Assembly (NCBI GenBank): GCA_944332675.1
Contig: CALVKJ010000002.1
Coordinates: forward strand, 18-64,017
DNA length: 64,000 bases
DNA from: an uncultured Bacilli bacterium
GTDB lineage: Bacteria; Bacillota_I; Bacilli_A; RF39; UBA660
Direction: 5' to 3'
Part shown: one piece after another, positions 11,608-44,099 of the stretch
Numbering within the stretch: position 1 is the stretch's first letter
How the letters are laid out: every line of letters begins with the position of its first letter
Notes under the pieces: generated by a model
Database searches by the model: none
What the model was told of the DNA's origin: nothing
The model's input: the letters and a program-made list of their open reading frames with translations, nothing else
Made by a program: the position numbers and the translations under genes

Positions 11608-11616
11608 TAGGAGAGT

Positions 11617-13117: not shown

Positions 13118-13152
13118 AAAACTACTAGAGGAAGTGAAATCTAGTAGTTTTT
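13118..13152. terminator. bidirectional terminator between convergent genes
   Basis: AAACTACTAGA-loop-TCTAGTAGTTT hairpin flanked by A and T runs. Confidence 0.65.
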
Positions 13153-13155
13153 AAT

Positions 13156-18474: not shown

Positions 18475-18485
18475 AAAGGAGTTTT

Positions 18486-19154: not shown

Positions 19155-19438
19155 ATTTTTTAGAAAAATATGGGTTTACTCCAGAAGATATTGAAGAATT
19201 TTTAGATAATACGCCCAAAAAAATCCAAGATGCAATAAAAGAACACGAAGATTTAGTGGAAACTAATCTTAAATTTGTAAAAGATTTAGGAACATCAGTT
19301 TATAAAGAAATATTTATTAATTATCCAGATATATTCTTACTTGATGCTAGTGTTTTTGAAAAGACATTCAGTCAATATGAAACTGCTGAATTAATTGAAA
19401 GTTTAAATAATAATTTTAAAGTAGCTGAATACTTATAA
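19151..19438 (+). CDS. hypothetical small helical-repeat protein
   Basis: ATGA overlap with the previous gene. Contains FLEKYGFTPEDIEEFL and FVKDLGTSVYKEIFINYPDIFLL repeats. Confidence 0.5.
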   Translation: MNFLEKYGFTPEDIEEFLDNTPKKIQDAIKEHEDLVETNLKFVKDLGTSVYKEIFINYPDIFLLDASVFEKTFSQYETAELIESLNNNFKVAEYL

Positions 19439-20352: not shown

Positions 20353-20381
20353 TTGAAAAAAAACTATATATATGGTAAACT
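20353..20381 (+). promoter_or_regulatory. candidate promoter of the filament operon
   Basis: TTGAAA-17 nt-TAAACT, about 20 nt upstream of the 20403 start. Confidence 0.35.
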
Positions 20382-20402
20382 AAATCATAGGTAGGTGTCG
20401 AA

Positions 20403-21161
20403 ATGTCTAGATATAAATATGTATTATTTTCAATAATTACTTTTGGATTATTTACATTATCAGCAAATGCAGCTAGCTGTAGTTATGAACAAAGGGCTGA
20501 ATTAAATAGTGAAATATCCAATATTACTGCCAACTATGAAGTAATTGAAGTGCCACTTGAAGAAGGAGCAACTCCTCCGGACGCTTTATTAGAATCAGAA
20601 GAGGAAGAATATACATGGATGGTAGAAGCTCTTCAAATAAATATACTAAATTTAACAGAAAATGTTTATGTTGAAGTTACTAATAATTACGACAACCAAA
20701 CTACCGTATATAATTATTCTGATACAGATAATGGAAATATTGCTATAGAATGGAGAACTCTTGGAGAACTAGTAACTTATACTATAAGAGTTTACGCATC
20801 TAGCGCTACTGATTGTGCTGATACATTATTAAGAACCTTACGAGTATCATTGCCAAGGTATAATGACTATGCTACATATGCAGTTTGTGATCAGGTTCCA
20901 GATTATTATTTGTGTCAACGATACGTATTTTTTGATCAAGTAGATTTTAACGAGTTTTCGACCAAAGTTTTAGCGGAAATCGAAAGAGTTGAACAAGAAG
21001 AAGAACAAAACAATGAAGAAGATACCACTTGGTATGAAGAGGTTGGTAATTTTATAAGCGAACATAAAACACCGATAATAATTGGCGTGGTATCTATTTT
21101 AGTTATAGCGGGGGTTATAGTTGTAATAGTAGTAATAAGACGTAGGAGAAGTGAAATATGA
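20403..21161 (+). CDS. secreted protein with C-terminal TM anchor (first gene of filament operon), function unknown
   Basis: Signal peptide (..FTLSANA/AS), acidic segments, and a C-terminal TM plus RRRRSEI stop-transfer tail. ATGA overlap with the next gene. Confidence 0.6.
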   Translation: MSRYKYVLFSIITFGLFTLSANAASCSYEQRAELNSEISNITANYEVIEVPLEEGATPPDALLESEEEEYTWMVEALQINILNLTENVYVEVTNNYDNQTTVYNYSDTDNGNIAIEWRTLGELVTYTIRVYASSATDCADTLLRTLRVSLPRYNDYATYAVCDQVPDYYLCQRYVFFDQVDFNEFSTKVLAEIERVEQEEEQNNEEDTTWYEEVGNFISEHKTPIIIGVVSILVIAGVIVVIVVIRRRRSEI

Positions 21162-24100
21162 AAAAGTTTTTAAAAATTTTAGCAGTTTTTGTAGTATTTT
21201 TCTTTAGTATAAATTCAGCTGAGGCTTTTAGTACTGATACATCAATTGTGTATACTAAAACTAGAGCTGATACAATCAGAATTAACAGTTTAAGGCTTAC
21301 TAACGGTAGTAGTAGCAAAAGTTATTCTACTTACCTTTACAATATGGTGGGTAATGGTGAAACTTATATAACTTATTGTATGGACCCACATAAACCAGCA
21401 GCTACTTATTATACGTTGGACCGTATTTTAGGAGATGCTTCCTATTCTGGTGGAGTTAGAGCATTTGACTATGGGATGTTGGAAATACTTAAACATGCAT
21501 ATACGCAAATTAACAATGAATTTACTACTAGTGATGCAACACCAGAAACCACTCCTGATCCTTTTGTTACAACACTTACTGGTGAAAAACTTTACGCTGC
21601 AGCCAGAATAGCTATTGTATCTTTGAACTCAGCGGTATTCGGCTGGGCTGGTAGAGGTTTAAATGACCAAAGCATGAGAGCAACAGCATCTTCTTATTTA
21701 ACTCGTGGTACATATTGGGCACAATGGCGTGAAGATATTGCTGTTTTTACGGGAACTACTGGTACCACTCCAAGTGAAAGATATAAACAAATAATTAATA
21801 GAAATGAACAATACTATACTTGGTATATGAGTGATTGGGATTTTACTGGTTGGTCTTATGGCAATGATGCTTATGATGTAATTTATGCAGCCAAAGAACT
21901 TTTTGATATTGGTTTGGATGCTGCTGTAGATTTCGTTGAAAATGGCCGTGTTGAATCAAGCATAAGTGGTAGTGTTACTTCAACTGTTCAAGATGGTCAA
22001 AGAACCGAAGATGAAGTTCAAGAATACGTATATATTAATATGGATCTAGTAGACTTTGCGGAAGATGCATATGTCAATAACTTTAATTTCACTTGTAGTA
22101 ATTGCTCAAGTAGTGGTGTAACATACGATTACATGGAATATTACAATGCTGAAAATGAATGGGTAAGATTAACTTCTGATGTTGATATTTCTAAAGTATT
22201 AACACCAGATGAAGATGGCATAAGAAGTGGGACAGTAAGAATCAGAGTTCACTTTACTAAACAAGTATTAGATGAAGAAAATTGTAGCAATGCTTCATTT
22301 ACTGTAACTTACGATTATTATGATCCTAATAAACAATATATTGGAGCTTTATTAAAAAACAAAAATGGTGATTATCAAAGAATGCTTGTTATTGATGAAG
22401 TTTCTGGTGATGTTAATTCCGATGGCATTCCTGGATCTGTTGGTTGTGCTAATCCTGTTTGTGATACACAATTATCAGTTCCAATTTGTAGTGATGATGA
22501 AGACGAAGCAATATCAGAAATTTATGCACCAGAAAATATTAAAAAATGCGTTTTAGATAATCAAGACGATGCTGGAAATAATTATAATTTAGTTGAAGAT
22601 TCTGGTGGAGTTTCTGAAGATAATGCATATTGTCAAGTTTTCTGTAAAGAAGATTACTTTGATGTAATTCAAGAAGAAGGCGGAAATGTCCTTGGTGGTA
22701 TTAAATTGAATCCTGAAATAGAAGATGTTAACTGTGGTGGATATTTCCAATTAACAGCTCACGTAGAAGGTAAGAAAGATTGCTATACTAGTGGCGGAAC
22801 TGAAGATAAAGAAATAAATAGGGAACAATATATTGCCGATATAACAGAAGCTCAAATAACAATGATTAATGCATACAATGAATATTTAAGATGGCAAACT
22901 GCATATGATAGTGTTCCAGAAACAGATAGCAATAAATATCACTCTCTTGAAACAGACCCTTATACTTGTTGCCCTGAGCCACCTGCAACTGGAAGTTGTA
23001 GTTGTGGTTGTGGTATTGATGGATATTGTGTAGGATATAATATCAGCGGAGAAGTTACAGGTTTCTCTTATAGTGATAATGGAGATGGAACGTTAACAAT
23101 TAGTAGAAACCAAACTTTGTCATATAGTTATACAGATGATGGCGGAAGATCAGCAAGTGGCTGTGGTGGAAGTTGTAGTTCTGGATCAACTTCAACATTA
23201 AAAAGGAACCTAAAAGATGATTATTTAGATCCAGCTATAGATGCTTTAAATACTGCAATTAGTAAATATGAACAAATAATTGCTAGCTATAACTCTTGTA
23301 CTACAAATTGGACAAATGAATATCCTTTTGAACAAAAATTGAGTTTCTACTATAGCGAATATCAAGGAAATGAAGATTATAGTCCTTATTACGATTTAAT
23401 TTCTGCAACTGGCGATCCTGATTTATATTATCTTGATCCTGTTGATGAATCATTAGTTGAAGAATATGAAATTGAAATTTGTTTAGATGGTACAACATCA
23501 GAATATGAATGTGAAGGTAGACAATATAATTATGAAGAAATGGATGTTACATTAGGAACTTATAATTATTCTCAAGATTATTCTGAAGTATTCGAACATC
23601 AAGATTATATAAAGTGTAGTGAAAGCGGTTGCTCAATCGATCAAGATGCTTATGTTTCAAATGCAACATTCGTAAAAAAGACTGTTAAAAAATCACAAGA
23701 TTATATAACACCAACTGTGTTCTATCAAATTGAAGCGAATGGACGTATTACTGTAAATAGTGGTTATACTGGAAATGCTTTAACTTTAGATGCACTAATT
23801 AATGCTTTACCAATATCTACTCGTGCTACTGGTGGTGGAGTCTTCAAATTAATGCTTGAAGATTTAGGTGAATTCTATGACCCAAGTGATGCTGTAACTC
23901 AAGCGGATAACTTAGGTAGATTAATAGACTATGGTAGATCGGAAGTTGATGGAGTTAACCACGTTAGAGGAGATAACTACGATAAGAGTGTAGCAGTTGC
24001 TGTAGGAAGAGAAGGAATTGAAACATTTACTGGTGATTACACTTGCTACTACTACTCTGATTGTCGAACTGAAGACTGTCCAGATTGCGACTTTGTCTGT

Positions 24101-24727
24101 GAAGAAGGAGAATGTGAATGGGTATACTGTCCAGATTGTGAATTTGATTGTGTAAACTGTATTTTCAATTTAGATGAATTACAGATAAACTTTAAACCAA
24201 TATCTACTGTAGATGTCGAATCTGCTAATAGAGATTTAGGTTACAACTGGAATGTTAATACAACCCTTGAAGCTCTGGAATTATTGCGAGATAAAGCATC
24301 ACTTACTATTCAAGAAATAGAAACAGAAAATGAAACAATTTACAATAAGACTGGTGATGATTCAGAATTAGACTTTAGTATTAGATTAAATTCTGAAATT
24401 ATCAACTATTTAAAAGAATACAATGGATCTGTTGAAGACGAGGGTGGTTATGCAAATGACTCACTAACTTGCTATTCTGCAACAATTGATGGTAAGAATT
24501 TTGCAAATATCTTCTGTTATAGTGATGTATTAGATGATTTGTATGATCAATATGAAGATCAAATAACATTTGCACCAGGAAGAATTTCTAGAGGTCAAAG
24601 AAATGTAGATTCTGATGGTTCAAGTAATGCCAATGCAAATGGTTATTGGTCATTATGGTCTGGATGGACAGAATCTGAAAAAGTAAATGGTCAATACTCT
24701 GTTATTGGTGGACCATCATGGAAATAG
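21158..24727 (+). CDS. 1189-aa secreted Cys-rich protein (candidate filament-associated adhesin), function unknown
   Basis: Signal peptide MKKFLKILAVFVVFFFSINSAEA/FS; no LPXTG and no C-terminal TM. Cys clusters: CCPEPPATGSCSCGCGIDGYC and DCPDCDFVCEEGECEWVYCPDCEFDCVNC. Confidence 0.65.
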   Translation: MKKFLKILAVFVVFFFSINSAEAFSTDTSIVYTKTRADTIRINSLRLTNGSSSKSYSTYLYNMVGNGETYITYCMDPHKPAATYYTLDRILGDASYSGGVRAFDYGMLEILKHAYTQINNEFTTSDATPETTPDPFVTTLTGEKLYAAARIAIVSLNSAVFGWAGRGLNDQSMRATASSYLTRGTYWAQWREDIAVFTGTTGTTPSERYKQIINRNEQYYTWYMSDWDFTGWSYGNDAYDVIYAAKELFDIGLDAAVDFVENGRVESSISGSVTSTVQDGQRTEDEVQEYVYINMDLVDFAEDAYVNNFNFTCSNCSSSGVTYDYMEYYNAENEWVRLTSDVDISKVLTPDEDGIRSGTVRIRVHFTKQVLDEENCSNASFTVTYDYYDPNKQYIGALLKNKNGDYQRMLVIDEVSGDVNSDGIPGSVGCANPVCDTQLSVPICSDDEDEAISEIYAPENIKKCVLDNQDDAGNNYNLVEDSGGVSEDNAYCQVFCKEDYFDVIQEEGGNVLGGIKLNPEIEDVNCGGYFQLTAHVEGKKDCYTSGGTEDKEINREQYIADITEAQITMINAYNEYLRWQTAYDSVPETDSNKYHSLETDPYTCCPEPPATGSCSCGCGIDGYCVGYNISGEVTGFSYSDNGDGTLTISRNQTLSYSYTDDGGRSASGCGGSCSSGSTSTLKRNLKDDYLDPAIDALNTAISKYEQIIASYNSCTTNWTNEYPFEQKLSFYYSEYQGNEDYSPYYDLISATGDPDLYYLDPVDESLVEEYEIEICLDGTTSEYECEGRQYNYEEMDVTLGTYNYSQDYSEVFEHQDYIKCSESGCSIDQDAYVSNATFVKKTVKKSQDYITPTVFYQIEANGRITVNSGYTGNALTLDALINALPISTRATGGGVFKLMLEDLGEFYDPSDAVTQADNLGRLIDYGRSEVDGVNHVRGDNYDKSVAVAVGREGIETFTGDYTCYYYSDCRTEDCPDCDFVCEEGECEWVYCPDCEFDCVNCIFNLDELQINFKPISTVDVESANRDLGYNWNVNTTLEALELLRDKASLTIQEIETENETIYNKTGDDSELDFSIRLNSEIINYLKEYNGSVEDEGGYANDSLTCYSATIDGKNFANIFCYSDVLDDLYDQYEDQITFAPGRISRGQRNVDSDGSSNANANGYWSLWSGWTESEKVNGQYSVIGGPSWK

Positions 24728-24740
24728 GGGTGAATAGTTA

Positions 24741-25148
24741 ATGAAAAATGCTTTGTGGGGATACTGGTTAGTATTACTTGGAATATTCGTAGTTGTTATA
24801 ATGTTGCTTGTGCAAAATTTAACAACTTCGTCTACCCAAGATTACTATTTAATAAAAGAAATTACGGAAGCAGCTTTAATAGATGCAGTTGACTATTCTT
24901 ACTATCGTACTTTCGGTGAAATTAAAATAAATAAAGAAAAGTTCTATGAAAGTTTTATTCGAAGATTTTCGGAAAACGCTTCAGTTACTACCGACTATAC
25001 AATTAATTTTTACGGAGTTTATGAAGCACCGCCAAAAGCTAGTGTAGAAATTAAAAGTAAATCAAACACATTCAATGTTGTAGGAGATTCGGAATCCTTT
25101 GATATGACTGAAAGAATTGATGCTATTATTGAAGGAAATGCAATATAA
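24741..25148 (+). CDS. pilin-like/pseudopilin-like protein (short leader plus N-terminal hydrophobic helix)
   Basis: MKNALWG then YWLVLLGIFVVVIMLLV, followed by a ~100-aa soluble domain. Same architecture as ORF 32590. Confidence 0.45.
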   Translation: MKNALWGYWLVLLGIFVVVIMLLVQNLTTSSTQDYYLIKEITEAALIDAVDYSYYRTFGEIKINKEKFYESFIRRFSENASVTTDYTINFYGVYEAPPKASVEIKSKSNTFNVVGDSESFDMTERIDAIIEGNAI

Positions 25149-25169
25149 AAATAAAAATGGAGGAATAAA

Positions 25170-25943
25170 ATGGGAAATTTAATAAATACATTTAAAAGAT
25201 TTCTTACAAATAAAACGACAGTTACCATTTTAGGGATAGTAATAGGGATAGCAGTATTATTTTTCTTCTATATGTATCGTGTAAATAATGCTGTTAACCC
25301 TAGAGAAATCCCGGTTGCTACTAGAACAATCGCTGCAACTGAAGAAATTACGCGTGATGATATTAAAATGGTTAGCATCGGAAGTAGTTTTTTAAATGAT
25401 GCTGATGTATATACTAGTGCAGATTCTTTAGTTGGAAAATATGTAAATACTGGTACATCTATTCCAGCTGGAGGAATGTTTTATACTAGCCAAGTGGTTG
25501 AAAAAGAAGAATTGCCAAATTCAATATTTGATGAAATACCTGATGGCTATACAATTTATCAGTTAAGAGTAGATAATGAATCGACTTATGCTAATTCGAT
25601 TTATCCTGGTGATAGAATTGACTTATGGATGTCAACAACGCAAGATGGTTTGGTTTATTATGGTGAATTTATCCACGGAATTGAAGTTTTAGCAGTTCGT
25701 GATTCTAGCGGTGAAAATGTTTTTGATGTAACGAGTGGAAGAACACCAGCTTGGTTACTGTTTGCAGTTCCTACCGATATGTATCGTTATTTAAAAGTTG
25801 CTGAATTTTTATCAGGAGTAACTATAACACCGCTTGTTAGAAATACCAATTATAATTCTGATGTTGGTTCAACTGAAATTACCAATGAAGTATTATTACA
25901 AATGATCGAAAGCAGAATTATGGATATGGGTGGAAGTTACTAG
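25170..25943 (+). CDS. CpaB/RcpC-like Flp pilus assembly protein, copy 1
   Basis: N-terminal TM, then PREIPVATRTIAATEEITRDDI (SAF-like) and a C-terminal beta domain. Paralogue of the next ORF. Confidence 0.65.
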   Translation: MGNLINTFKRFLTNKTTVTILGIVIGIAVLFFFYMYRVNNAVNPREIPVATRTIAATEEITRDDIKMVSIGSSFLNDADVYTSADSLVGKYVNTGTSIPAGGMFYTSQVVEKEELPNSIFDEIPDGYTIYQLRVDNESTYANSIYPGDRIDLWMSTTQDGLVYYGEFIHGIEVLAVRDSSGENVFDVTSGRTPAWLLFAVPTDMYRYLKVAEFLSGVTITPLVRNTNYNSDVGSTEITNEVLLQMIESRIMDMGGSY

Positions 25944-25952
25944 GAGGATAAA

Positions 25953-26741
25953 ATGGGAAATATTTTAAAGAATATTAAAAATGCACTTTTAAATAGAAAT
26001 ACAGTAACTATATTAGCCGTTTTAGCGGGAGTAGTAGTTTTATGGTTTTTCTATAATATGACAGTAAATAATGCCATTAATCCTCAAAGAGTTCCTGTAG
26101 CAACAAGGAACATAACTGCTAAAGAAATGATAACTTCTGAAGATTTTGAGTACGTTGAAATTAATAGTGGATTTTTAGAAAGTGCCAATATTATTACTAA
26201 TGCTAGTCAACTTGTTGGTTACTATGTTAAAAATGAAACTTCGATTGTTGAAGGAGCAATGTTTTACCGCGAACAAGTTGTTGAAAGAAGTGAACTTAAA
26301 GAAAGAGAACAAGAAACTCTACCAGATGGTTACACGATATATTGGCTTCAAGTTGATAACACAAGTACATACGCTAATTCAATTTATCCTGGTGATAAAA
26401 TAGACTTATGGTTGAAAGCTGAAGTTGATGGTCAATTTATTTATGATGAATTTATCAATAGTATCGAAGTAGTTTCTATAAAAAATTCATCTGGAGCTAA
26501 TGTGTTTGATACTCAAACTTCTAGTGAACCAGCTTGGTTATCATTTGCAGTAACTTTCGAAATGGCTGAATACTTAGAGTTAATTGATAGAATAACTGAA
26601 AATAGAATGGAAGTATATCCAGTACCAAGAAATAAATTGTATACAACTGAAGGAGCTGAAGTATCTTATTCGAATGAACTATTATTACAAATGATTGATA
26701 GTTATGCCGGATTTACTCCAGGATCGACAACAACCGAATAA
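25953..26741 (+). CDS. CpaB/RcpC-like Flp pilus assembly protein, copy 2
   Basis: Same layout as copy 1. Shared blocks include DGYTIYWLQVDNTSTYANSIYPGDKIDLW. Confidence 0.65.
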   Translation: MGNILKNIKNALLNRNTVTILAVLAGVVVLWFFYNMTVNNAINPQRVPVATRNITAKEMITSEDFEYVEINSGFLESANIITNASQLVGYYVKNETSIVEGAMFYREQVVERSELKEREQETLPDGYTIYWLQVDNTSTYANSIYPGDKIDLWLKAEVDGQFIYDEFINSIEVVSIKNSSGANVFDTQTSSEPAWLSFAVTFEMAEYLELIDRITENRMEVYPVPRNKLYTTEGAEVSYSNELLLQMIDSYAGFTPGSTTTE

Positions 26742-26769
26742 AAAAGAATTAAATAAGAGGTGGCAAATC

Positions 26770-27876: not shown

Positions 27877-27891
27877 TAGAAAGGAGTAAAT

Positions 27892-28797
27892 ATGCAAACA
27901 CTTACAGAACTGGTAATTTTACTTATAATAGCTGTAATTGTCCTAATATTTCGGAGAAATCCTGGAGAAAATGTTTATAAATTTGTAGTAGGCAATGTTA
28001 CGCGAATTTATGATAAATATGCTCCGTATTCCTTCAAAATGGTTCGGGAAAAAGCTATTGAATTAGGGCAAGAGTATAATGCACGTCAATATTTAACCCA
28101 AGTTATAATATTTGGGGGTGTCGCAGCCTTAATAGGGTATTTTTACTTCTACAGTATTATAATAGCTGTTATATATGCCATTATTGCTATTGTGTTTATT
28201 CCTTATCTTGCCTACTTACGATGTCAAAGAGTATATAGTGAATATATATTTGAACAAATTCAAACTTATACAACTAACGTTATCATGGAATTTAATACAA
28301 CTCAAAGCTTTGTTAAATCTCTTGAAGGAGTTAGAGATTCTGGAATATTAGAAAATCCGGTATTAGATGATGTTAAAAAGATGATCGATATGTCTTATCA
28401 AAATGGAACAATTGATGAATCTTTACAATATTTCAATGATAAATATCCTTATTATATGGTAAAGAATATGCATCAATTATTCTTGCAAATTACCAAAGAA
28501 GGTGCAAGAGATTCTGGACAAGCTCTAGAAAATATGTCATTAGATATCGATGCCCTAGTTGAAGGTGTATACCGCGATCAAATGGATAGAAAAAACTTCC
28601 ACGGAAGGTTCATTAGGTTTGGTCTAATTCTTTATTTATTAGTGGTTGTTTTAAGATATTTGCTTGGTGAAGAAAATTATATAGCTCTATTAGATATGTG
28701 GTATGTTCAACTTATACTCCATGCCGTAGTAATAATTAATGCTTTTTTCCTAGTTTCGGGAGAAAAATATTATAATGAAGATGTGGGGGTAGAATAA
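27892..28797 (+). CDS. TadB-like platform protein (T2SS-F-type domain)
   Basis: N-terminal TM, central TM pair, a cytoplasmic helical domain and C-terminal TMs. Sits directly after the ATPase gene. Confidence 0.6.
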   Translation: MQTLTELVILLIIAVIVLIFRRNPGENVYKFVVGNVTRIYDKYAPYSFKMVREKAIELGQEYNARQYLTQVIIFGGVAALIGYFYFYSIIIAVIYAIIAIVFIPYLAYLRCQRVYSEYIFEQIQTYTTNVIMEFNTTQSFVKSLEGVRDSGILENPVLDDVKKMIDMSYQNGTIDESLQYFNDKYPYYMVKNMHQLFLQITKEGARDSGQALENMSLDIDALVEGVYRDQMDRKNFHGRFIRFGLILYLLVVVLRYLLGEENYIALLDMWYVQLILHAVVIINAFFLVSGEKYYNEDVGVE

Positions 28798-29585
28798 TGC
28801 AAATAGAAATTATTATTATCGCTGTTATTGTTTTTGTTATTATGACTATCGGCGGACAAATAAATATCAATCAAATGATTAGTGATAATCAAATGCTTTT
28901 CTTAAAGCTTAAAGAAAGTGATTGGGATTTTTTTGTCAGAGCTAGATATGGTAACAGTGTAAACCCTGATGTATTATTTAATAAAAGAATCAAGAACGCT
29001 CTTATTGTAATGGTTTTAGCATTTTTCTTTATGATTCAAGATTTAAATGCTGTTAAAGTTTTAATCATATTTGTTCTCGGTATATTTATATTTAAAATGC
29101 CTTACAATGACATAAAGAAATTTTATAATCAACATATGCATCAAATTGATGCTATGTTACCCCATTATTTAAAGAGCTTGGAAATATTAATACAACACTA
29201 CACTGTACCGGTGGCTATTGGTAAGTCAATGGCAGATGCTCCGGAAATATTTAAAGAAGGATTGCAGGAAATGATCGATGCCATAAATTCTGGTGATGAT
29301 TCCATAGAGCCTTATATGGCTTTTGCTCGTAAATATCCTGTAAGAGATTCAATGCGAATGATGCGGCTTTTATATCGGCTTAGTTTAGGTCGTCAAGAAA
29401 GAAAGCAAGAACAAATTTTAACATTTTCAAGATCGATTTCTAGTTTACAACAAAAAGCCCGGGAAACAAGATATAAAAATCGTTTGGAAAAGATGGAAAG
29501 TAAAACTATGAGTATGCTTATTACAACTGGGTTAGGAGTAATGATTTTACTAATTTTAGCCGTAATGCAACTTATGGGTGCTTAA
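28797..29585 (+). CDS. TadC-like platform protein (T2SS-F-type domain)
   Basis: Same topology as the TadB-like ORF. Contains a helical domain (LPHYLKSLEILIQHYTVPVAIGKSMADAPEIFKEGLQEMIDAINSGDD). Start overlaps the previous stop. Confidence 0.6.
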   Translation: MQIEIIIIAVIVFVIMTIGGQININQMISDNQMLFLKLKESDWDFFVRARYGNSVNPDVLFNKRIKNALIVMVLAFFFMIQDLNAVKVLIIFVLGIFIFKMPYNDIKKFYNQHMHQIDAMLPHYLKSLEILIQHYTVPVAIGKSMADAPEIFKEGLQEMIDAINSGDDSIEPYMAFARKYPVRDSMRMMRLLYRLSLGRQERKQEQILTFSRSISSLQQKARETRYKNRLEKMESKTMSMLITTGLGVMILLILAVMQLMGA

Positions 29586-29612
29586 TTATAGTAAAGTAAA
29601 AAAAATAATTAA

Positions 29613-29641
29613 TTGATATTTAATAAGAAATAAGGTATAAT
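29613..29641 (+). promoter_or_regulatory. internal promoter for the pilin genes
   Basis: TTGATA-17 nt-TATAAT in the only sizeable intergenic gap of the operon, followed by an AAGGAGG RBS. Confidence 0.55.
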
Positions 29642-29671
29642 AAAGATAGGAATAAGGAGGAATTTTAATTT

Positions 29672-29947
29672 ATGAAAGAAGCGACTGGAGAATTAAACAT
29701 GACTGTTGTTACTGTTGTTGCTATAGCAGCTGTTGCAGCATTCTTTTATGCATTTGTTTGGCCAGCAGTTAAAAACCAAATAAATCGTAATACCTACTGT
29801 GCTGCTGCAGTTTCTTGTGGTGAACCAGATGCAGATGGAAATCGTACTTGTCAATATGTTGATGAAGATGGTGATTTACAAGATGTACTTTGTCCTGCAG
29901 ATACTACTACAGGCGGAACTACAGGCGGAACTACAGGTGGTAATTAA
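29672..29947 (+). CDS. pilin-like protein 1 (91 aa, Cys-rich, TTGG-repeat tail)
   Basis: MKEATGELNM leader-like N-terminus, a 22-residue hydrophobic helix, 4 Cys, and a C-terminal TTTGGTTGGTTGGN. Confidence 0.6.
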   Translation: MKEATGELNMTVVTVVAIAAVAAFFYAFVWPAVKNQINRNTYCAAAVSCGEPDADGNRTCQYVDEDGDLQDVLCPADTTTGGTTGGTTGGN

Positions 29948-29976
29948 AGATTAAATTATTAAGTGAGGTAATTTGA

Positions 29977-30222
29977 ATGAAAGAGGCAACCGGGGAACTA
30001 AATATGGCAGTTGTTGTAGCAATATCAATTGCAATCTTGGCGGCCTTTTTTTTCAGTTATTTATGGCCGATTATTAACAATAATTTCTATAGAACATCAC
30101 AATGTGATAAAGCAGCCTGCGACTGCAGTAATATAGAAGTTGTCAATGATGTTGAATATTGCACTCCTTGCTATATAAATGGTGAAGAGATTCCAGGTAT
30201 GAAATGTATTTTTAAAGGGTAG
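29977..30222 (+). CDS. pilin-like protein 2 (81 aa, Cys-rich)
   Basis: First 10 residues identical to pilin 1 although encoded with six synonymous differences. Hydrophobic helix and 7 Cys in the C-terminal half. Confidence 0.6.
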   Translation: MKEATGELNMAVVVAISIAILAAFFFSYLWPIINNNFYRTSQCDKAACDCSNIEVVNDVEYCTPCYINGEEIPGMKCIFKG

Positions 30223-30229
30223 TGGTTAA

Positions 30230-31804
30230 ATGAAAGAATCAGTAAGTGTTACTACAATTTTTCAAATTGTTATACTATTTATTCTATTGTTCACCGCAAT
30301 AATGTGTTTAACAATCAATAATTCTAATGCTTTTGGAGTTAGAGATGAAATTATCAACATTATTGAAATGAACAATGGAAACTATTTGAGTGATGATAAT
30401 TCTGGTTATTTGTCTGAAGAAATTGTTGATGCTATATCAGCTGCTGCCTATAGAACTACAGGTATTTGTGATGCTGAATATACTGGCTTTGAAAGAAATG
30501 GTCAACCAGTTGGATCTGGAGATCTGGCATCAGTATGCATTAGAGAAGTTAGCGTAACTGATGGAATAGATTCTTATTTAGATGAATTATTGGGAGATAC
30601 AGTAGATGCTGAGTTTGTTGAAGGTAAATATTATCAAATAGTTTTGTTTTACCAATTAGATTTACCAGTAATGCGTCAAGTTTACAATTTCCAAACAAAA
30701 GGTGAAACTAAAATCATCTATGAAGAAACTCGTAGTGTAAATACTAGTGGTTCAACAAGTAGTAACAATGGTACTTTGTCAGATATTTTTGATAATAATT
30801 CAAATAATAATACATCTACAGAAACAGGAAATAATAATTCGTCAGGAAATAACAATGAAACGAATAATGGAAACAATATTATGGGGGAGCAATTAGCTTG
30901 TCGTGAAGGTTTAGTTGAATCAGATTTAATAAGTGGTATTCAAGGTGTAGCAATGGCTGTTGTACCTATATATCCCAGTTTAAATGATACAAATAATACC
31001 AGATCGACAAGATTAGATGGAACGAAGTTTTCAATTTTAGGTAATGATGGTACAGCCAACGGTGGAGGCCGTTGGGCCATAATGTATGATGGCGAATGTG
31101 GCTGGGTTGATTCAACTTATATGGCTATTGATGCTACAGATTATTTACCATCTAATGTGAGATTTAATATCACTAATGCAAGTTCTAGTGCTTATTATGC
31201 TTGGGATGGCACGAGTGATGTATGGATTCCCAATTTAACTGGCAAAAGACTATATGATAGTTCCCAATATAACAATTCTTTTGTACCATTAACATTTTCA
31301 TTTGCTCAGAGTTTACGTAATATTGCTCAAAATAATTCAAACAGACAATTTCTTATAAATGATGCTTACAGACCATATTCTGTAACAGTATTAGCTAGAA
31401 ACACTTTAAGCAGTTTAATTAGTAGTAATTCCAATGTTTTAAATGTCGGAATGTCTGGCTGGGGAACTGGCTGGTTTTTAGCTCAAGGGGTTTCTGCTCA
31501 TAATACTGGCTGTGCTGTTGATATTACTTTTGCTGATCTTTCCACAGAACAAATAAGAAATATGCCAAGTGCTATGCACGATTTAAGCAAAAGAGCAGCT
31601 ATTTATACTTATTCTGGTAGTGGTACATACCGTACGGAGTTTACTAACTCTCAAGCATCTACTTTACATAGTATTATGACTGCTGGTGGCTTAGATGACT
31701 TAGCTAGTGAATGGTGGCATTATCAAAGCGATTCTTGCTATAATACAATCCGTAGTCATTCTAGTACAAATGGTGGGCAAAACATTAGTTTTTACGACTT
31801 GTAA
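30230..31804 (+). CDS. fusion protein: TadE-like pseudopilin module + Asn/Ser-rich linker + SH3b-like domain + M15 (VanX/VanY-type LAS) peptidase
   Basis: The N-terminal ~165 aa is paralogous to ORF 32590 (YYQIVLFYQLDLPVMRQVYNFQTKGET vs YYQIIVFYRFNLPVIGDVMTFQVEGTT). The C-terminus has INDAYRPYSV, SAHNTGCAVD and EWWHY zinc-peptidase motifs. Confidence 0.7.
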   Translation: MKESVSVTTIFQIVILFILLFTAIMCLTINNSNAFGVRDEIINIIEMNNGNYLSDDNSGYLSEEIVDAISAAAYRTTGICDAEYTGFERNGQPVGSGDLASVCIREVSVTDGIDSYLDELLGDTVDAEFVEGKYYQIVLFYQLDLPVMRQVYNFQTKGETKIIYEETRSVNTSGSTSSNNGTLSDIFDNNSNNNTSTETGNNNSSGNNNETNNGNNIMGEQLACREGLVESDLISGIQGVAMAVVPIYPSLNDTNNTRSTRLDGTKFSILGNDGTANGGGRWAIMYDGECGWVDSTYMAIDATDYLPSNVRFNITNASSSAYYAWDGTSDVWIPNLTGKRLYDSSQYNNSFVPLTFSFAQSLRNIAQNNSNRQFLINDAYRPYSVTVLARNTLSSLISSNSNVLNVGMSGWGTGWFLAQGVSAHNTGCAVDITFADLSTEQIRNMPSAMHDLSKRAAIYTYSGSGTYRTEFTNSQASTLHSIMTAGGLDDLASEWWHYQSDSCYNTIRSHSSTNGGQNISFYDL

Positions 31805-31813
31805 TAAAAAGGT

Positions 31814-32557
31814 GTGATACACTTGAAAAGAATTGTTTTATTGGGAGCTATCATTTTTCTTCTGAGTGGTTGTACAGTTGATTATAATCTAACTATCGAA
31901 GGAAATTCTTTTAAAGAAGATATTGCAGTTTATACTACTAACGTATCCTCTTTAGATGAAATTCAGCCATCTTATTATAATAGGACTTATAGAACTTTAT
32001 TTGATACTATTAGACAAATGCCAATAGGAATTTATTATGATGCTGATGAACCTTTATATAATCGAACTTTAATCGATGAGGAAAATCGTTATGGTGCTAA
32101 TTTTACAAATGATTTTACTTTTGCTGATTTAGCTCGTTCCAACGCAATAAACAAATGTTACAATCCATCAGATATTATATTAACTGCAGATAGTGATATA
32201 TATACTCTAAGAACTGTATCAAGCTGTCAATTATTCGAATATGAAGAAATTTTTAAAGAATTAAATATTAAAATAACTGTTAATAACTATGTTTTAAGTA
32301 ATAATGCCGATAGTGTTGATGGTAATACTTATACTTGGACTATTAACAGAGATAATTATAATAATAAAACGATAAATATTTCTTATGATACTACAAGGGA
32401 ACCAGTAATAACGAGTACTACTGAGGAAACTAATAGTAATTCGATAATTTCTTGGATTATAGACAATATTCCTATAGTAGCTGGAGGATTATTAGTTATC
32501 ATCACGATAATATGTGTTATAATTATAGATAGTAGAAATAAAAAGAAAATTAATTAG
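31814..32557 (+). CDS. lipoprotein with additional C-terminal TM anchor, function unknown
   Basis: Lipobox IFLLSG/C near the N-terminus and a C-terminal TM (IVAGGLLVIITIICVIII) plus a basic tail. The start is ambiguous between GTG 31814 and TTG 31823. Confidence 0.55.
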   Translation: MIHLKRIVLLGAIIFLLSGCTVDYNLTIEGNSFKEDIAVYTTNVSSLDEIQPSYYNRTYRTLFDTIRQMPIGIYYDADEPLYNRTLIDEENRYGANFTNDFTFADLARSNAINKCYNPSDIILTADSDIYTLRTVSSCQLFEYEEIFKELNIKITVNNYVLSNNADSVDGNTYTWTINRDNYNNKTINISYDTTREPVITSTTEETNSNSIISWIIDNIPIVAGGLLVIITIICVIIIDSRNKKKIN

Positions 32558-32589
32558 TCTGAAGAAATGTAAAGAAAAGGAGATAAAAA

Positions 32590-33036
32590 ATGCGGGAAGT
32601 AACTGGATCTACGTGGGTATTTCAATTGATGATAATTTTTATTCTTATCTTCGCCTGCTTTTTATGTCTAGTTATAAACTACTCTAAAGCTTATCGTGTT
32701 AAGAATGAAGTATTATCGATAATAGAAAAATATGAAGGTATATCTTCGACCTCAGCGGGAATAATTAATAACTATTTAAGAGGAGAATCATATGTAACAA
32801 CAGGATCTTGTCCTGATGGTTATTATGGTATCAAACTTGATAATGATGGTTATGAAGTTGCTCGTAGTGGTCAAAAATATAGTTATTGCTTTAGAGATGA
32901 ATATACAAACGATGGAATGATTTACTATCAAATAATTGTATTTTATCGTTTTAATCTCCCAGTAATCGGAGATGTTATGACATTCCAAGTTGAAGGAACT
33001 ACGGAATCATTCCAAGGAAATGTGGATCGTTATTAG
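32590..33036 (+). CDS. TadE-like pseudopilin
   Basis: MREVTGSTWVFQLMIIFILIFACFLCL N-terminus. Paralogous to the N-terminal module of ORF 30230. Confidence 0.5.
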   Translation: MREVTGSTWVFQLMIIFILIFACFLCLVINYSKAYRVKNEVLSIIEKYEGISSTSAGIINNYLRGESYVTTGSCPDGYYGIKLDNDGYEVARSGQKYSYCFRDEYTNDGMIYYQIIVFYRFNLPVIGDVMTFQVEGTTESFQGNVDRY

Positions 33037-33051
33037 AAAGGAAGATAAAAG

Positions 33052-34044
33052 ATGAACGTAATTATTTCTAACAAATATCAAGCATTGCTGGCTAATTTAG
33101 ATATTGATGTAATAAAAAGTATTAATGGTGAATTTACAGTAGATGAGTTAATTGCTCAATTTTCCAATTTTTATTACAATAAAATGATAATAGATATTAC
33201 TGCTATCAAAGGTTATCAAGATATTAATGTTATTCAACAACTTTCTGTAAACTTTGATATGTCTAAAGTTATTCTTCTTTTAGATGATTCAGAAACCGTT
33301 AATTCTCCAATGTATTTATCGCAATTAGTATCAATGGGTATTTATAATTTTGCTACCAATGTAAATGTTATTAAGTTCTTAATAGATAACCCTAACACTT
33401 ATAAAGACGTAGCTAGTTATCATAACATCAATGGCTTTAAAAAACCGGCGTTAAATGAAAATGTTGTAGATAATACCAAAGGAAAAATAGGACAAAAGAT
33501 TATTGGTTTTAAAAATGTAACAGATCATGCTGGAGCAACAACTTTAGTTTATTTATTAAAACTTCATTTAGAAAAAAATTATAAGGTAAAAGCAGTAGAA
33601 GTCGATGGTAATGACTTTATATTCTTTAATGATGATTCTCTAGAAAGTGTTTCTAGTGTTACATTTAATGATTTTTTAGCCCAAAATATTAATTGCGACG
33701 TTATCTTAGTAGATTTAAATAATAGTTCTGTTGAAAACTATTGCAACGATATTATTTATTTAATTGAACCAGGACGTATCCAATTAAATAAATTAATAAG
33801 AAAAGATAATGAAATATTTGAAAAACTTAAAAACAAAAAGATTGTTTTAAATAGAAGTGTTTTAAATGATAAAGATGTTGATGATTTTGAACGTGAAAGT
33901 GGTAGTAAAGTATTTTATAACTTACCATACCTTGATGATAAATTAGATAATCAACCAATTATTAACAACTTTTTATCTACTTTAGGTTTTAGTAGAGTAG
34001 AAGAAAATAAGGGCGGTTCAGGATTATTTAGTATATTTAAATAA
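33052..34044 (+). CDS. TadZ/CpaE-like protein (receiver-like N-domain plus ParA/MinD-like domain with degenerate Walker A)
   Basis: N-terminal alpha/beta receiver-like segment. The C-terminal segment IGFKNVTDHAGATTLVYLL..VILVDLN occupies the position of the deviant Walker A/B of CpaE-type ATPases but lacks the GKT lysine. Confidence 0.45.
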   Translation: MNVIISNKYQALLANLDIDVIKSINGEFTVDELIAQFSNFYYNKMIIDITAIKGYQDINVIQQLSVNFDMSKVILLLDDSETVNSPMYLSQLVSMGIYNFATNVNVIKFLIDNPNTYKDVASYHNINGFKKPALNENVVDNTKGKIGQKIIGFKNVTDHAGATTLVYLLKLHLEKNYKVKAVEVDGNDFIFFNDDSLESVSSVTFNDFLAQNINCDVILVDLNNSSVENYCNDIIYLIEPGRIQLNKLIRKDNEIFEKLKNKKIVLNRSVLNDKDVDDFERESGSKVFYNLPYLDDKLDNQPIINNFLSTLGFSRVEENKGGSGLFSIFK

Positions 34045-34067
34045 TCAATTGAAGTGAGGTGCGTAAG

Positions 34068-34424
34068 ATGAGTTTTTGTTATAAGACTGCAGTTGTATGG
34101 CAGGTAATTGGTTATGTTTTTTTCATATTGAAAATAGTTATTCCAATGATTTTAATAATCTTAGGAATAATCGATTTTGGTAAAGCGGTTTTATCGAGTG
34201 ATGATAAATCGATAAAAGATGCCGCAATGACTCTTGCCAAAAGATTAATTGCAGGTGTCATAATATTCTTCATTCCAACTGTTATAAATGTCGTATTTAG
34301 TTATATTTCTGGTTTTAGTGAAGATATGCAAGCTGATGCAATGAATTGTATTAATTGTTTAACATCACCGAATGGCTCTTGTGATACAAGTTATGAAGGC
34401 GAAGTTTTTCCAACAGGAAATTGA
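34068..34424 (+). CDS. small 2-TM membrane protein with Cys-rich C-terminal tail, paralogue A
   Basis: Two hydrophobic helices separated by DFGKAVLSSDDKSIKDAA; tail NCINCLTSPNGSCD. The ATG at 34068 has a GAGGTG RBS. Confidence 0.55.
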   Translation: MSFCYKTAVVWQVIGYVFFILKIVIPMILIILGIIDFGKAVLSSDDKSIKDAAMTLAKRLIAGVIIFFIPTVINVVFSYISGFSEDMQADAMNCINCLTSPNGSCDTSYEGEVFPTGN

Positions 34425-34444
34425 CATTTATTTCAAGCAAAATA

Positions 34445-34473
34445 TTGACTTTATTAAGTATATAAGGTAAAAT
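34445..34473 (+). promoter_or_regulatory. candidate promoter for paralogue B
   Basis: TTGACT-17 nt-TAAAAT upstream of an AGGGAGGAG RBS. Confidence 0.4.
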
Positions 34474-34501
34474 GAATGTATATAGGGAGGAGTGCTATAA
34501 T

Positions 34502-34861
34502 ATGGGAAATGTTGATAGTTTTTGTGCACAAACATCAGATATATGGCGTACAATCGGATATTTTTTATTAGTATTTAAAATTGTAATTCCTATTATCTTA
34601 ATAATACTAGGAATGGTTGATTTAGGAAAGGCTGTAATATCAAGTGATGATAAAGCTATTTCTAAAGCTGCAAAGTCATTATTAATGCGTGTAATTGCAG
34701 CTGTAGCAATATTCTTTGTACCAACAATAGTATCATTTGTTATTCAATTAGTTGGTGGTACTGAAGGCGATTATGATGTATGTGCAAAATGTATTTCAAG
34801 TCCAGGTGGCGAAACTTGTACAGATGCATATAACGAATTAAAAGAACTTACTGAAGACTAA
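34502..34861 (+). CDS. small 2-TM membrane protein with Cys-rich C-terminal tail, paralogue B
   Basis: Collinear with paralogue A (LIILGMVDLGKAVISSDDKAISKAA; tail CAKCISSPGGETCTD). The ATG at 34502 has an AGGGAGGAG RBS. Confidence 0.55.
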   Translation: MGNVDSFCAQTSDIWRTIGYFLLVFKIVIPIILIILGMVDLGKAVISSDDKAISKAAKSLLMRVIAAVAIFFVPTIVSFVIQLVGGTEGDYDVCAKCISSPGGETCTDAYNELKELTED

Positions 34862-34871
34862 TTAATAAATT

Positions 34872-34897
34872 ACCACGTTTTAATAACGTGGTTTTTG
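34872..34897 (+). terminator. rho-independent terminator ending the filament operon
   Basis: ACCACGTT-loop-AACGTGGT hairpin followed by TTTTT. Confidence 0.65.
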
Positions 34898-35032
34898 TAT
34901 GGTTATTAATTATACCATATTTAAATATCTCAGCAAATAATTTCATTTATCAATTACAATATAATAAATACTTATAATATTTTATTACAAACTAAAAAGG
35001 ATTGCTATAAGTAACAATCCTTAACTATTATA

Positions 35033-43488: not shown

Positions 43489-43517
43489 ATTAATTCATAA
43501 AATTTACTAGTGATATT

Positions 43518-43991: not shown

Positions 43992-44029
43992 AATGTATCA
44001 CCTAATATAATTGTTACAAACAAAACAAT

Positions 44030-44065: not shown

Positions 44066-44099
44066 TGAAATATATTATAGAGTATATGGAGGAAATATA

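Follow-up and report, generated by a model that had tools for sequence, protein, structure and literature searches.

A gene cluster for a probable Tad-like filament machine with a probable thioester adhesin on the chromosome of an uncultured Bacilli bacterium

The stretch of DNA analyzed here, referred to below as the window, comprises 64 kb of contig CALVKJ010000002.1 from an uncultured Bacilli bacterium (assembly GCA_944332675.1), and contains a cluster of 16 open reading frames (ORFs), all on the plus strand, which occupies positions 20403-34861. On balance, we favor the view that this cluster, located on the chromosome and inherited vertically, encodes a Gram-positive Tad-like machine of the type IV filament superfamily, which is of a Firmicutes-specific 'DUF5411 type' and is coupled to a covalent (thioester) adhesin. 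An earlier note on the same DNA had proposed a monoderm Tad-type filament machine, probably adhesive, and this core reading holds on the evidence from the ATPase, the CpaB-like, platform and TadZ-like proteins, and the pilin-type leaders. The 16 same-strand ORFs were found exactly as listed in that note, including an ATGA overlap at 21158-21161 and a 1-nt overlap at 28797. The gaps between consecutive genes are, in order, -4, 13, 21, 9, 28, 15, -1, 86, 29, 7, 9, 32, 15, 14, and 47 nt, and purine-rich Shine-Dalgarno-like sequences precede most of the 16 starts. The predicted hairpin and T-run at the end of the cluster are also present, in the form of an intrinsic-terminator-like structure (34872-34900) with an 8-bp stem containing 4 GC pairs (34872-34892) followed by TTTTTGT, which begins 10 nt past the ORF16 stop. 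The proposed promoter-like site TTGAAA-17-TAAACT (with TG) does exist 5' of ORF1 (20353-20381, 9/12 matches), but it is weak, and such matches occur in this AT-rich region at chance frequency (83 found versus 85 expected in shuffled sequence). Pfam and NCBIfam searches gave no match for ORF1, 7, 8, 9, 10, 12, 13, and 14.

The ATPase of the cluster is ORF6 (26770-27876), a 368-amino-acid (aa) secretion ATPase of the CpaF/VirB11/FlaI group (T2SSE, expect value E 1e-28). The GTG at 26770 was preferred as start over the TTG at 26695, since the gene callers agree on it and it has a good ribosome-binding site. All four motifs that had been picked out before, GETGSGKTE, ITIEDTLEL, RQNPRWILLSEVR, and GHNIISTIH, are present. 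Judged by PDB scores, the best relatives of solved structure are CpaF (71.6 bits), VirB11 (60 bits), and FlaI (59.8 bits), and the best NCBIfam matches are VirB11, conjugal TadA, and TrbB. The nearest annotated ATPases are found in Priestia, on pLS20 and pXO2, and on Listeria plasmids, with that of Priestia koreensis as best plasmid match (34% identity, E 1e-52), and with 33% identity to pLS20 gene 37. In a small neighbor-joining tree (298 columns, 200 bootstraps), which was built without Gram-positive TadA or archaeal references, the ATPases of the lineage, Priestia, pLS20 gene 37, and pXO2 form one clade with 100% bootstrap support. The ATPase of the cluster falls outside the proteobacterial CpaF clade, and apart from true VirB11 and TrbB. 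Judged by its sequence, it belongs to a Firmicutes-specific clade.

ORF7 (27892-28797, 301 aa) and ORF8 (28797-29585, 262 aa), which directly follow the ATPase gene, are putative TadB-like and TadC-like platform proteins, respectively. ORF7 is a polytopic membrane protein that, by transitive homology, appears to be a divergent T2SSF protein: in hhalign it aligns with the 'type II secretion system F family protein' of Priestia (94.9%, E 4e-8, 237 columns), which in turn matches PF00482 at E 3.4e-5 with 24.2 bits against a cut-off of 25.2. The ORF8 family comprises 449 clusters, including fusion proteins of ~500 aa whose C-terminal half matches ORF8, and a broad profile of this family (A10) aligns with the T2SSF region of the TadB-like protein of Priestia (89%, E 2.3e-6), while 4 of the 48 remote ORF8 relatives match T2SSF. 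The assignment of ORF7 and ORF8 as two platform proteins is thus supported, with a link to T2SSF that is transitive only. Neither the narrow, in-lineage profiles of ORF7, ORF8, and ORF14 nor the broad ORF8 profile matched a PDB sequence. We also considered whether ORF7 and ORF8 are paralogues, but hhalign found no relation with the narrow profiles, and the broad ORF8 profile gave a result that is only suggestive (30.7%, E 5e-4).

As had been proposed, the cluster contains two CpaB/RcpC-like proteins. ORF4 (25170-25943, 257 aa) has an N-terminal transmembrane helix, a SAF domain (24.7 bits, above the cut-off of 21), and an RcpC-like domain, and its matches to RcpC (E 3e-4) and TIGR03177 CpaB (E 5e-9) are both below cut-off. 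The second paralogue, ORF5 (25953-26741, 262 aa), misses the SAF cut-off of 21 by 0.1 bit (20.9 bits, E 5e-4), and matches RcpC (E 9e-3) and TIGR03177 (E 1.2e-8) below their cut-offs. The only PDB match of the CpaB family profile was RcpC 9GZR, which was not significant (E 0.45). At the other end of the cluster lies ORF14 (33052-34044, 330 aa), for which neither a sequence-family match nor a PDB sequence match was found. An AlphaFold2 (AF2) model of this protein (predicted local distance difference test score, pLDDT, of 76.6) shows an N-terminal alpha/beta domain that is receiver-like, followed by a ParA/MinD-fold domain with a degenerate Walker A motif (KNVTDHAGATT). Foldseek matched the model to HypB, ParA, MinD, and ParF (E 1e-4 to 3e-3, target-normalised TM-scores 0.42-0.54). 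Thus, the label TadZ given in the earlier note finds no Pfam or NCBIfam match but agrees with the modeled fold, and in this model ORF14 has the TadZ/CpaE architecture. With its Walker A motif degenerate, the protein probably does not hydrolyze nucleotide. The TadZ of Eubacterium rectale, which we take to be PDB entry 3FKQ, was not among the top 50 Foldseek matches listed for ORF14.

Five proteins of the cluster, ORF3, ORF9, ORF10, ORF11, and ORF13, share a leader of the form M-K/R-E-x-x-G/S, followed by a hydrophobic helix of ~20 residues. ORF3 (24741-25148, 135 aa), with an MK(E/N)xxWG leader and a transmembrane helix, is a DUF5411 protein (PF17424, E 5e-57). It occurs in 82 of the related loci that we collected (n = 86: 80 genome loci and six gut-metagenome contigs), with a median identity of 62%, and it is a candidate minor pilin or assembly factor. 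A DUF5411 profile compared with the PDB sequences revealed no known fold relative. ORF9 (29672-29947, 91 aa), in which MKEATG is followed by ELNMTVVTVVAIAAV, has no Pfam match and is the candidate major pilin, and ORF10 (29977-30222, 81 aa), with the leader MKEATGELNM and 6 cysteines, would be a second pilin paralogue. Across the lineage, the first ~30 residues of both proteins (MKEATGELNMTVVTVVAIAAV...) are almost invariant and the cysteine-containing remainder, including the C-terminus of ORF9, varies. If cleavage occurs after the Gly, ORF9 and ORF10 would have an acidic residue at position +1, and ORF3, ORF13, and the N-domain of ORF11 would not. A conserved N-terminus combined with a variable C-terminus is the classic pilin pattern, and based on their sequences we consider these five proteins putative pilins.

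ORF11 (30230-31804, 524 aa) appears to be a modular minor pilin, in which a Ser/Asn linker connects a pilin-like N-domain of ~165 aa to a C-terminal M15 metallopeptidase of the VanX/LAS type (PF01427, Peptidase_M15, residues 335-500, E 3e-13). The motifs SAHNTGCAVD and EWWH are intact, and from what is known of VanX we take these (SxHxxGxAxD ... ExxH) to be the zinc and catalytic motifs of the M15 family. The N-domain is paralogous to ORF13 (32590-33036, 148 aa), a minor pilin-like protein that starts with MREVTG/STWVFQ (hhalign, profile A6 versus A5: 99.96%, E 9e-39). A relation of either of these two with the DUF4320 protein of Priestia was considered, and no link was found. Most relatives carry only the ~165-aa N-domain, and the M15 fusion is found in the near relatives L001, L007, L009, L022, L025, and L029. 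Modular type IV pilins, in which a functional domain is attached to the C-terminus of a pilin module, occur in Streptococcus sanguinis as PilB and PilC. In contrast to these, the module grafted onto ORF11 is a cell-wall peptidase and not an adhesin, and it is restricted to a sub-lineage. Between ORF11 and ORF13 lies ORF12 (31814-32557, 247 aa), a lipoprotein with the lipobox LSGC and a C-terminal transmembrane helix, which has no family match. This variable accessory gene was found in no more than 6 loci, most of them near-identical (median identity 99%).

The first two genes of the cluster appear to encode the adhesive part of the system. ORF2 (21158-24727) encodes a secreted giant of 1189 aa that is rich in cysteines, and that carries a Sec-type signal peptide, no LPXTG motif, no transmembrane helix, no other anchor, and the near-invariant C-terminus GGPSWK. 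Its AF2 model has a pLDDT of ~90 over residues 30-265, and the only strong Foldseek matches are the thioester domains 6FWY (EfmTIE86 TED of Enterococcus faecium, E 6.6e-7) and 6FWV (BaTIE of Bacillus anthracis, E 3e-4), both with probability 1.0. In 39 homologues of the giant (26-96% identity) Cys74 in YCMDP is invariant, and many cysteine pairs are conserved. The YCMD sequence fits the thioester motif [YFL]C-phi-pi (PMC8092201), and in hhalign YCMDPHKP of the giant aligns with YCIDPDKP around Cys68 of the pLS20 adhesin TIE (E 0.001). Gln407, which is conserved in 38 of the 39 sequences and is the sole such Gln in residues 1-470, is the candidate partner of Cys74. Based on this model, ORF2 is probably a class II thioester-domain adhesin (PMC8092201, PMC6194298). 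With the members of this class (BaTIE 6FWV, EfmTIE86 6FWY, TIEpLS20) it shares the fold, the motif, and the position of the domain right after the signal peptide, and TIEpLS20 likewise has no sorting signal or LPXTG (PMC8092201). Unlike these adhesins, ORF2 does not match the Pfam TED family, and the spacing between the Cys and Gln407 amounts to 333 residues versus 188 in TIEpLS20, which implies an insertion. The rest of the protein does not consist of CnaB repeats but is cysteine-rich, with conserved CxxC clusters in addition to the GGPSWK end.

ORF1 (20403-21161, 252 aa) has no family match, and contains a signal peptide, four conserved cysteines, an acidic stretch, and a C-terminal transmembrane helix followed by RRRR. 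It is always located directly 5' of the giant, and the two genes are duplicated as a pair in L078, L080, and L086; therefore, ORF1 is the probable membrane-anchored partner of the giant adhesin. Since the giant has a Sec-type signal peptide and no anchor, one could also think of a pseudopilus-type device, resembling type II secretion, that exports this protein and the hydrolase instead of forming a long adhesive pilus. Short pilins with several minor pilins do recall the pseudopili of type II secretion, and a CpaB ring could serve as a conduit through the wall. Yet ORF1 and ORF2 have ordinary signal peptides and a single membrane needs no special exporter, and the thioester-domain homologue encoded by pLS20 functions on the cell surface, in contact between cells (PMC8092201), so that we consider a secretion device highly improbable.

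The last two genes, ORF15 (34059-34424, 121 aa) and ORF16 (34472-34861, 129 aa), encode proteins with two transmembrane helices that resemble the PF18895 family (T4SS_pilin, VirB2-like). The matches of the two copies in the window are below cut-off (PF18895 E 0.01 for ORF15 and E 9e-5 for its paralogue ORF16, which also resembles the pilin-like Mbov_0395 protein of an integrative and conjugative element (ICE) at E 2e-3), and 20 of the 28 family members match PF18895, with a best E of 4.6e-7. Both proteins have a conserved FC near the N-terminus and a CxxC...C in the tail, at their predicted outside ends, and in ORF15 this amounts to one N-terminal and three C-terminal conserved cysteines. The VirB2-like arrays of Patescibacteria (bioRxiv 10.1101/2025.01.22.634366) and Mbov_0395 of the Mycoplasma ICE also concern small proteins with two transmembrane helices, in tandem variable arrays and in small genomes. 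The hidden Markov model (HMM) matches of the window proteins to the T4SS_pilin and Mbov_0395 families are weak, and, in contrast to those arrays, which adjoin VirB4, the genes here adjoin those of a Tad-like machine, no VirB4 being found in the window, and their products carry conserved cysteines at both predicted extracellular ends. No link was found between this family and the 'TrbC/VirB2 family protein' of pXO2. In relatives, PF18895 arrays reach up to four copies (L081:17263-20145; L057:15306-17376), including versions of 458 and 491 aa with large extra domains that have no Pfam match.

Several observations weigh against a Tad-like filament. The ATPase clade groups with CpaF in 1% and with VirB11 in 2% of the bootstraps; hence, of its former assignment to the TadA/CpaF/VirB11 class, the T2SSE match and the rank of CpaF as best PDB relative stand, and a place with either CpaF or VirB11 in the tree does not. 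For ORF7 and ORF8, which had been called TadB-like and TadC-like, there is no direct Pfam or NCBIfam match, and the evidence for T2SSF comes indirectly, from profile comparisons and from a match that lies just below the Pfam cut-off. The AF2 models of ORF14 and the giant both reach only moderate quality (pLDDT 72-77), and as the Foldseek matches are partial, the TM-scores that go with them are low. It is conserved gene order alone that suggests the link between the adhesin and the filament. With regard to the pilins, no match in Pfam or NCBIfam was found to Flp_Fap for ORF9 and ORF10, or to TadE (PF07811) for ORF3, ORF11, and ORF13; the term pilin-like holds for the shared leader and helix of the five proteins, and no HMM backs the labels Flp-like and TadE-like of the earlier note. 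The leader MKEATG/ELNM also differs from the Flp motif G/XXXXEY, and has no EY. Finally, a motif scan, Pfam searches of ORFs with multiple transmembrane helices, and phmmer with GspO, covering 1.55 Mb of the window and related loci, detected no A24 prepilin peptidase in the cluster, in the 64-kb window, or in ~10 kb on either side of the cluster in 86 relatives. As no A24-like ORF was detected near the cluster, leader cleavage is a predicted step. It is common in monoderms that the prepilin peptidase is encoded away from the pilus cluster, and Bifidobacterium breve encodes TadV outside its tad locus.

These same points, the pilin HMMs that fail to match ORF3, 9, 10, 11, and 13 and the peptidase not found nearby, together with the fact that DUF5411 has no known fold relative by sequence, could be taken to mean that the small N-helix proteins are not filament subunits, but belong to a membrane complex that reuses the ATPase and the platform. 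We consider this improbable, since all five have a short charged leader that ends in Gly or Ser, a hydrophobic helix, and a conserved N-terminus with a variable C-terminus, and since their genes come directly after those of the ATPase and the platform, an arrangement found in every type IV filament system.

When compared with Tad/Flp (type IVc) systems, including the monoderm versions, the presumed filament machine shares the ATPase of the CpaF/VirB11/FlaI group, two single-domain platform proteins, a CpaB/RcpC-like SAF protein, a ParA-fold TadZ-like protein, and short pilins combined with larger minor pilins, and the monoderm versions likewise have no secretin. It differs from these systems by the duplication of CpaB, by the location of the TadZ-like gene at the far end of the cluster and its degenerate Walker A, by the failing Flp_Fap, TadE, and G/XXXXEY tests and the peptidase that was not detected nearby, and by its extra parts: the DUF5411 protein, the thioester-domain adhesin, the PF18895 proteins, and the pilin-hydrolase fusion. 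Monoderm Tad loci used as comparators are the TANB77 cluster (PMC11680825), the tad locus of Bulleidia extructa (PMC12786226), the tad locus of B. breve, and the TadZ locus of E. rectale. Diversity is a known trait of Gram-positive Tad loci (PMC3244431, PMC11680825, PMC12786226); therefore, the missing secretin, sortase, and in-cluster peptidase, which had been listed as anomalies, are ordinary for such loci. An LPXTG-like motif was not found in any of the 16 proteins, in agreement with what had been noted.

A matching ATPase is encoded by gene 37 of the conjugation operon of pLS20, where it is described as a 'putative VirB11' (PMC8557374). Five or six components of the cluster are shared, in order, with genes 34-45 of this plasmid. 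Both in pLS20 and in pXO2, which has the same layout and includes the 'TrbC/VirB2 family protein', we find in the same relative order as in the cluster a thioester adhesin with YC(I/M)DP(D/H)KP, a DUF5411 protein, the ATPase, two membrane proteins, small N-helix proteins, and a PF18895 protein (gene 45 in pLS20). In pLS20, gene 34 is the thioester adhesin TIE, gene 36 matches DUF5411 (E 1.4e-5), gene 40 has a weak match to DUF4320 (E 0.006), and gene 45 matches PF18895 above cut-off (E 1.3e-7). The broad ORF8 profile aligns with pLS20 gene 39 (96.2%, E 2.4e-9) and with the pXO2 equivalent (96.6%, E 6e-10), and a relation between ORF7 and pLS20 gene 38 was rejected, as the alignment was not significant (6%, E 0.006). 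The shared components and their order indicate that the cluster is homologous to, and collinear with, the first half of the pLS20/pXO2 conjugation operons. There are also differences. In the plasmids, this module is followed by VirD4, VirB6-like, VirB4, VirB8-like, and VirB1-like genes for DNA transfer, none of which is found at the cluster; the stretch of pLS20 and pXO2 that we saw contains no CpaB and no TadZ-like gene; and the small plasmid proteins start with MLD or MLE, without a Gly-terminated leader, whereas the pilins of the cluster start with MKE. Small plasmid proteins of 47-49 aa (MLDQNADRMYWVIGAVLVVGAL...), located at 13140-13283 of the pLS20 locus (L088) and at 8098-8247 and 12074-12220 of the pXO2 locus (L089), resemble very short Flp-type pilins and have no Pfam match.

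This kinship raises the possibility that the cluster serves a conjugative element as its front end for mating-pair formation, with a type IV secretion system (T4SS) of the pLS20/pXO2 kind, either as part of an integrated element or as a domesticated remnant that still takes part in DNA transfer along with genes located elsewhere in the genome. Apart from the components shared in the order of genes 34-45, the 'VirB11-like' ATPases of pLS20, pXO2, and the Listeria plasmids as nearest annotated relatives, the VirB11, conjugal TadA, and TrbB models as best NCBIfam matches, and the fact that PF18895 is a T4SS-pilin family would fit with this. However, VirB4, VirD4, VirB6, relaxase, and integrase are absent from the Pfam matches of the 16 cluster proteins and 30 other ORFs of the window that were scanned, and CpaB, a T2SSF-type platform, and TadZ are parts of type IV filaments and not of a T4SS. 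In addition, the cluster lies in a stable housekeeping neighborhood in close relatives, its GC content equals that of the window, and its ATPase shows the long vertical inheritance described below. Therefore, we consider a role in DNA transfer unlikely. The grouping of the ATPase and platform proteins with conjugative T4SS, which the earlier note had considered as a way in which its reading could fail, is found halfway: the nearest annotated ATPases are 'VirB11-like' plasmid proteins, yet in the small tree the clade does not join VirB11. Most likely, the cluster represents a module that is related to the mating-contact module of these plasmids and that stands without DNA-transfer genes.

The Priestia koreensis plasmid NZ_CP061869 carries, in order, genes for large surface proteins, DUF5411, SAF/CpaB, a ParA-like protein, the ATPase, a T2SSF protein, a second platform protein, and DUF4320. 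As in the window, a large surface protein, DUF5411, SAF/CpaB, the ATPase, the T2SSF protein, and the second platform protein thus follow each other in order. The Priestia cluster differs in that a ParA-like gene (AAA_31) separates CpaB from the ATPase gene, and in having an SLH protein and the DUF4320 protein; no PF18895 gene was seen in it, and a thioester domain was not apparent in its 993-aa protein. An ORF of 172 aa located 5' of the Priestia cluster, with multiple transmembrane helices and a PGDTK motif (L087, 4461-4979), was examined as a TadV-like peptidase and rejected, as it has no Pfam match and no similarity to GspO. DUF5411-containing CpaF/PilC operons, described as 'secretion-related', have been predicted computationally in Clostridia (Roseburia, Ruminococcus, and Eubacterium; Miller et al. 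2022, PMC9523054). With respect to the lineage-specific parts claimed in the earlier note, the giant, ORF3, and ORF15/16 do not qualify, as they recur in order in pLS20 and pXO2, and partly in Priestia, whereas the M15 fusion and the lipoprotein are confined to near relatives.

An ATPase that is at least 78% identical (78-97%) to ORF6 was found in at least 554 species-level genomes, with one genome scanned per species. These genomes are labeled as uncultured Bacilli or Tenericutes bacterium, Clostridium sp. CAG:609, or Candidatus Onthocola, the latter placed by NCBI in Bacilli incertae sedis; the lineage is probably the GTDB order RF39. Identical or near-identical clusters are present on many gut-metagenome contigs. 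This degree of identity over so many species indicates long vertical inheritance. A comparison of the neighborhood in relatives, as the earlier note had suggested, showed that 12 to 15 of the cluster genes recur in the same order in those related loci that extend far enough, and that in close relatives the cluster is located in the same housekeeping neighborhood. Over the 86 loci, the order is a ~250-aa anchored protein and a giant of 930-1480 aa, DUF5411, CpaB, the ATPase, ORF7, and ORF8, then a variable insertion point, the two pilins, the two paralogous minor pilins, ORF14, and the PF18895 genes, with 1-3 copies of CpaB and 1-4 copies of PF18895. Median identity amounts to 85% for the ATPase, 74% for ORF7, 68% for ORF8, 63% for ORF14, and 62% for DUF5411, and only ~32% for the giant and its partner ORF1, as is usually seen when the parts of a machine are compared with exposed parts. 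The cysteines are almost wholly confined to predicted extracytoplasmic proteins or protein parts: ORF1 contains 4, ORF2 37, ORF9 4, ORF10 6, ORF11 7, ORF13 4, ORF15 4, and ORF16 5, DUF5411, CpaB, and ORF8 none, and ORF7 one. This distribution implies extensive disulfide bonding, in a presumed anaerobe.

The variable insertion point is the ORF8/ORF9 junction, where other genomes have YfhO, LDH, ORF6N, amidoligase, or AAA_14 genes. In the window, this junction consists of the 86-nt gap, the sole long gap of the cluster, which contains, just 5' of the first pilin gene ORF9, the promoter-like sequence TTGATA-17-TATAAT (29613-29641, plus strand, 11/12 matches), a joint-best site in the region. The presence of such a site at the same junction that accommodates unrelated genes suggests two transcription units.

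RF39 genomes are, as we assume, small and auxotrophic, and it is conceivable that the cluster encodes a DNA-uptake (competence) or nutrient-scavenging pilus, which replaces or complements ComG in a reduced-genome bacterium. Its conservation across many species of the lineage would suit such a role. In Micrococcus luteus, Tad/Flp pili drive transformation (PMC4322843), and they have been implicated in Liberibacter too (PMC8513845); CpaF-type motors can be bidirectional (PMC11300603). On the other hand, the Pfam matches of the cluster and of the other ORFs that were scanned in the window include no ComEA, ComEC, or DprA, none of the pilins showed a DNA-binding domain, and the largest and most constant accessory gene encodes an adhesin-type thioester protein, which points to attachment. 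We therefore think that uptake is an improbable function.

The cluster is chromosomal and flanked by housekeeping genes. Upstream are an ABC transporter and a phosphoesterase gene, and downstream uvrA, lgt, a thioredoxin-reductase-like (trxB-like) gene at 40543-41418, gltX, cysS, a PBP5-type carboxypeptidase gene, uppS, ldh, and uvrB. The GC content is ~30% throughout the window, and that of the cluster equals the rest. A known mobile element was excluded, as the entire cluster found no match among plasmids and phages by megablast, and scans of the window yielded no tRNA or Rfam match. Just 5' of the cluster, at 17194-19438, lie genes for a 426-aa coiled-coil protein and for proteins of 222 and 95 aa, all without significant family match, which accompany the cluster in 24-26 closer relatives; coiled-coil genes also occur in the tad operon of Bulleidia (PMC12786226). 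A 502-aa ORF on the minus strand (35033-36541) converges on the cluster terminator, has no Pfam or NCBIfam match, and is kept in ~26 related loci with a median identity of 58%. Further away, at 41788-46712, two candidate surface proteins are encoded, the first of 566 aa and without family match, the second of 910 aa and containing fibronectin-III and Ig-like domains. The only GC-rich spot of the window (10627-12699, 0.40 versus ~0.29) encodes a 326-aa protein with collagen triple-helix repeats (PF01391, E 5e-30), followed by a glycosyltransferase-2 protein with TPR repeats, and this pair could make a BclA-like glycosylated surface fiber. An ORF6N/Rha-type (phage antirepressor-like) gene is present at 57617-58492, and a gene of the ORF6N type is also found inside the cluster of another species, between ORF8 and the pilins (L081:13162-14061).

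How a Tad-like filament machine of this composition might work can be outlined from the homologies. ORF7 and ORF8 would form the membrane platform, given their transitive homology to T2SSF, and the ORF6 ATPase would energize it, possibly positioned by ORF14, of which the modeled fold resembles TadZ. By analogy with RcpC, one or both of the CpaB/RcpC-like proteins may form a ring or conduit outside the membrane. ORF9 and ORF10 would then be pulled from the membrane and polymerized, and ORF3, ORF13, and the N-domain of ORF11 could act as priming or tip pilins that prime or cap the filament. In this sub-lineage, the M15 peptidase of ORF11, whose motifs are intact, might open the peptidoglycan locally. 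The giant ORF2 would be held at the surface by ORF1, by the filament tip, or by both, and may bind its target covalently through a Cys74-Gln thioester, as its fold and motif lead one to expect. The module also includes the conserved ORF15 and ORF16, to which we assign no step. As to its biological role, the system would attach a gut bacterium of the Bacilli to other cells or to material from the host.

No paper was found that describes this system in this lineage. What is new is that the ATPase forms its own clade, that the Flp, TadE, and TadV tests fail, that the module constantly includes a thioester adhesin and PF18895 proteins, that a pilin-hydrolase fusion occurs in one sub-lineage, and that the module is recognizably the same as genes 34-45 of pLS20/pXO2. 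Gram-positive conjugation systems have been described as pilus-less as late as 2024 (PMC11730352). TIE and its Cys68 are needed for efficient conjugation of pLS20 in liquid, and the way in which TIE attaches to the cell has been stated to be unexplained (PMC8092201). A bolder and tentative proposal, which we hold to be possible but would not bet on, is that the cluster and pLS20/pXO2 genes 34-45 constitute an unrecognized, Tad-derived class of Firmicutes filaments that present a covalent thioester adhesin. In the plasmids, this filament would be the 'missing' mating pilus of Gram-positive conjugation, and in the gut lineage it would have become a domesticated chromosomal system for attachment to the host or between cells, with the PF18895 proteins as parts of the filament machine and not of a VirB4 channel. 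Assembly might even be independent of a peptidase, because the pilin-like proteins of all three systems begin with M-x-(D/E), and those of the plasmids have no Gly-terminated leader.

With its separate ATPase clade, unusual leader, pilin-hydrolase fusion, and association with PF18895, the cluster extends the diversity of type IV filaments in monoderms. The homology with pLS20 and pXO2 provides a testable hypothesis for mating contact in liquid without a pilus (PMC11730352) and for the retention of TIE (PMC8092201), and since pLS20 is genetically tractable, the prediction can be tested at once. The occurrence of the ATPase in at least 554 species-level genomes of gut Bacilli, an abundant group in humans and animals, together with the gene set that recurs in the relatives examined, makes it likely that the system is central to attachment, and such a role could help to explain the lifestyle of these uncultured gut Bacilli, or guide their cultivation.

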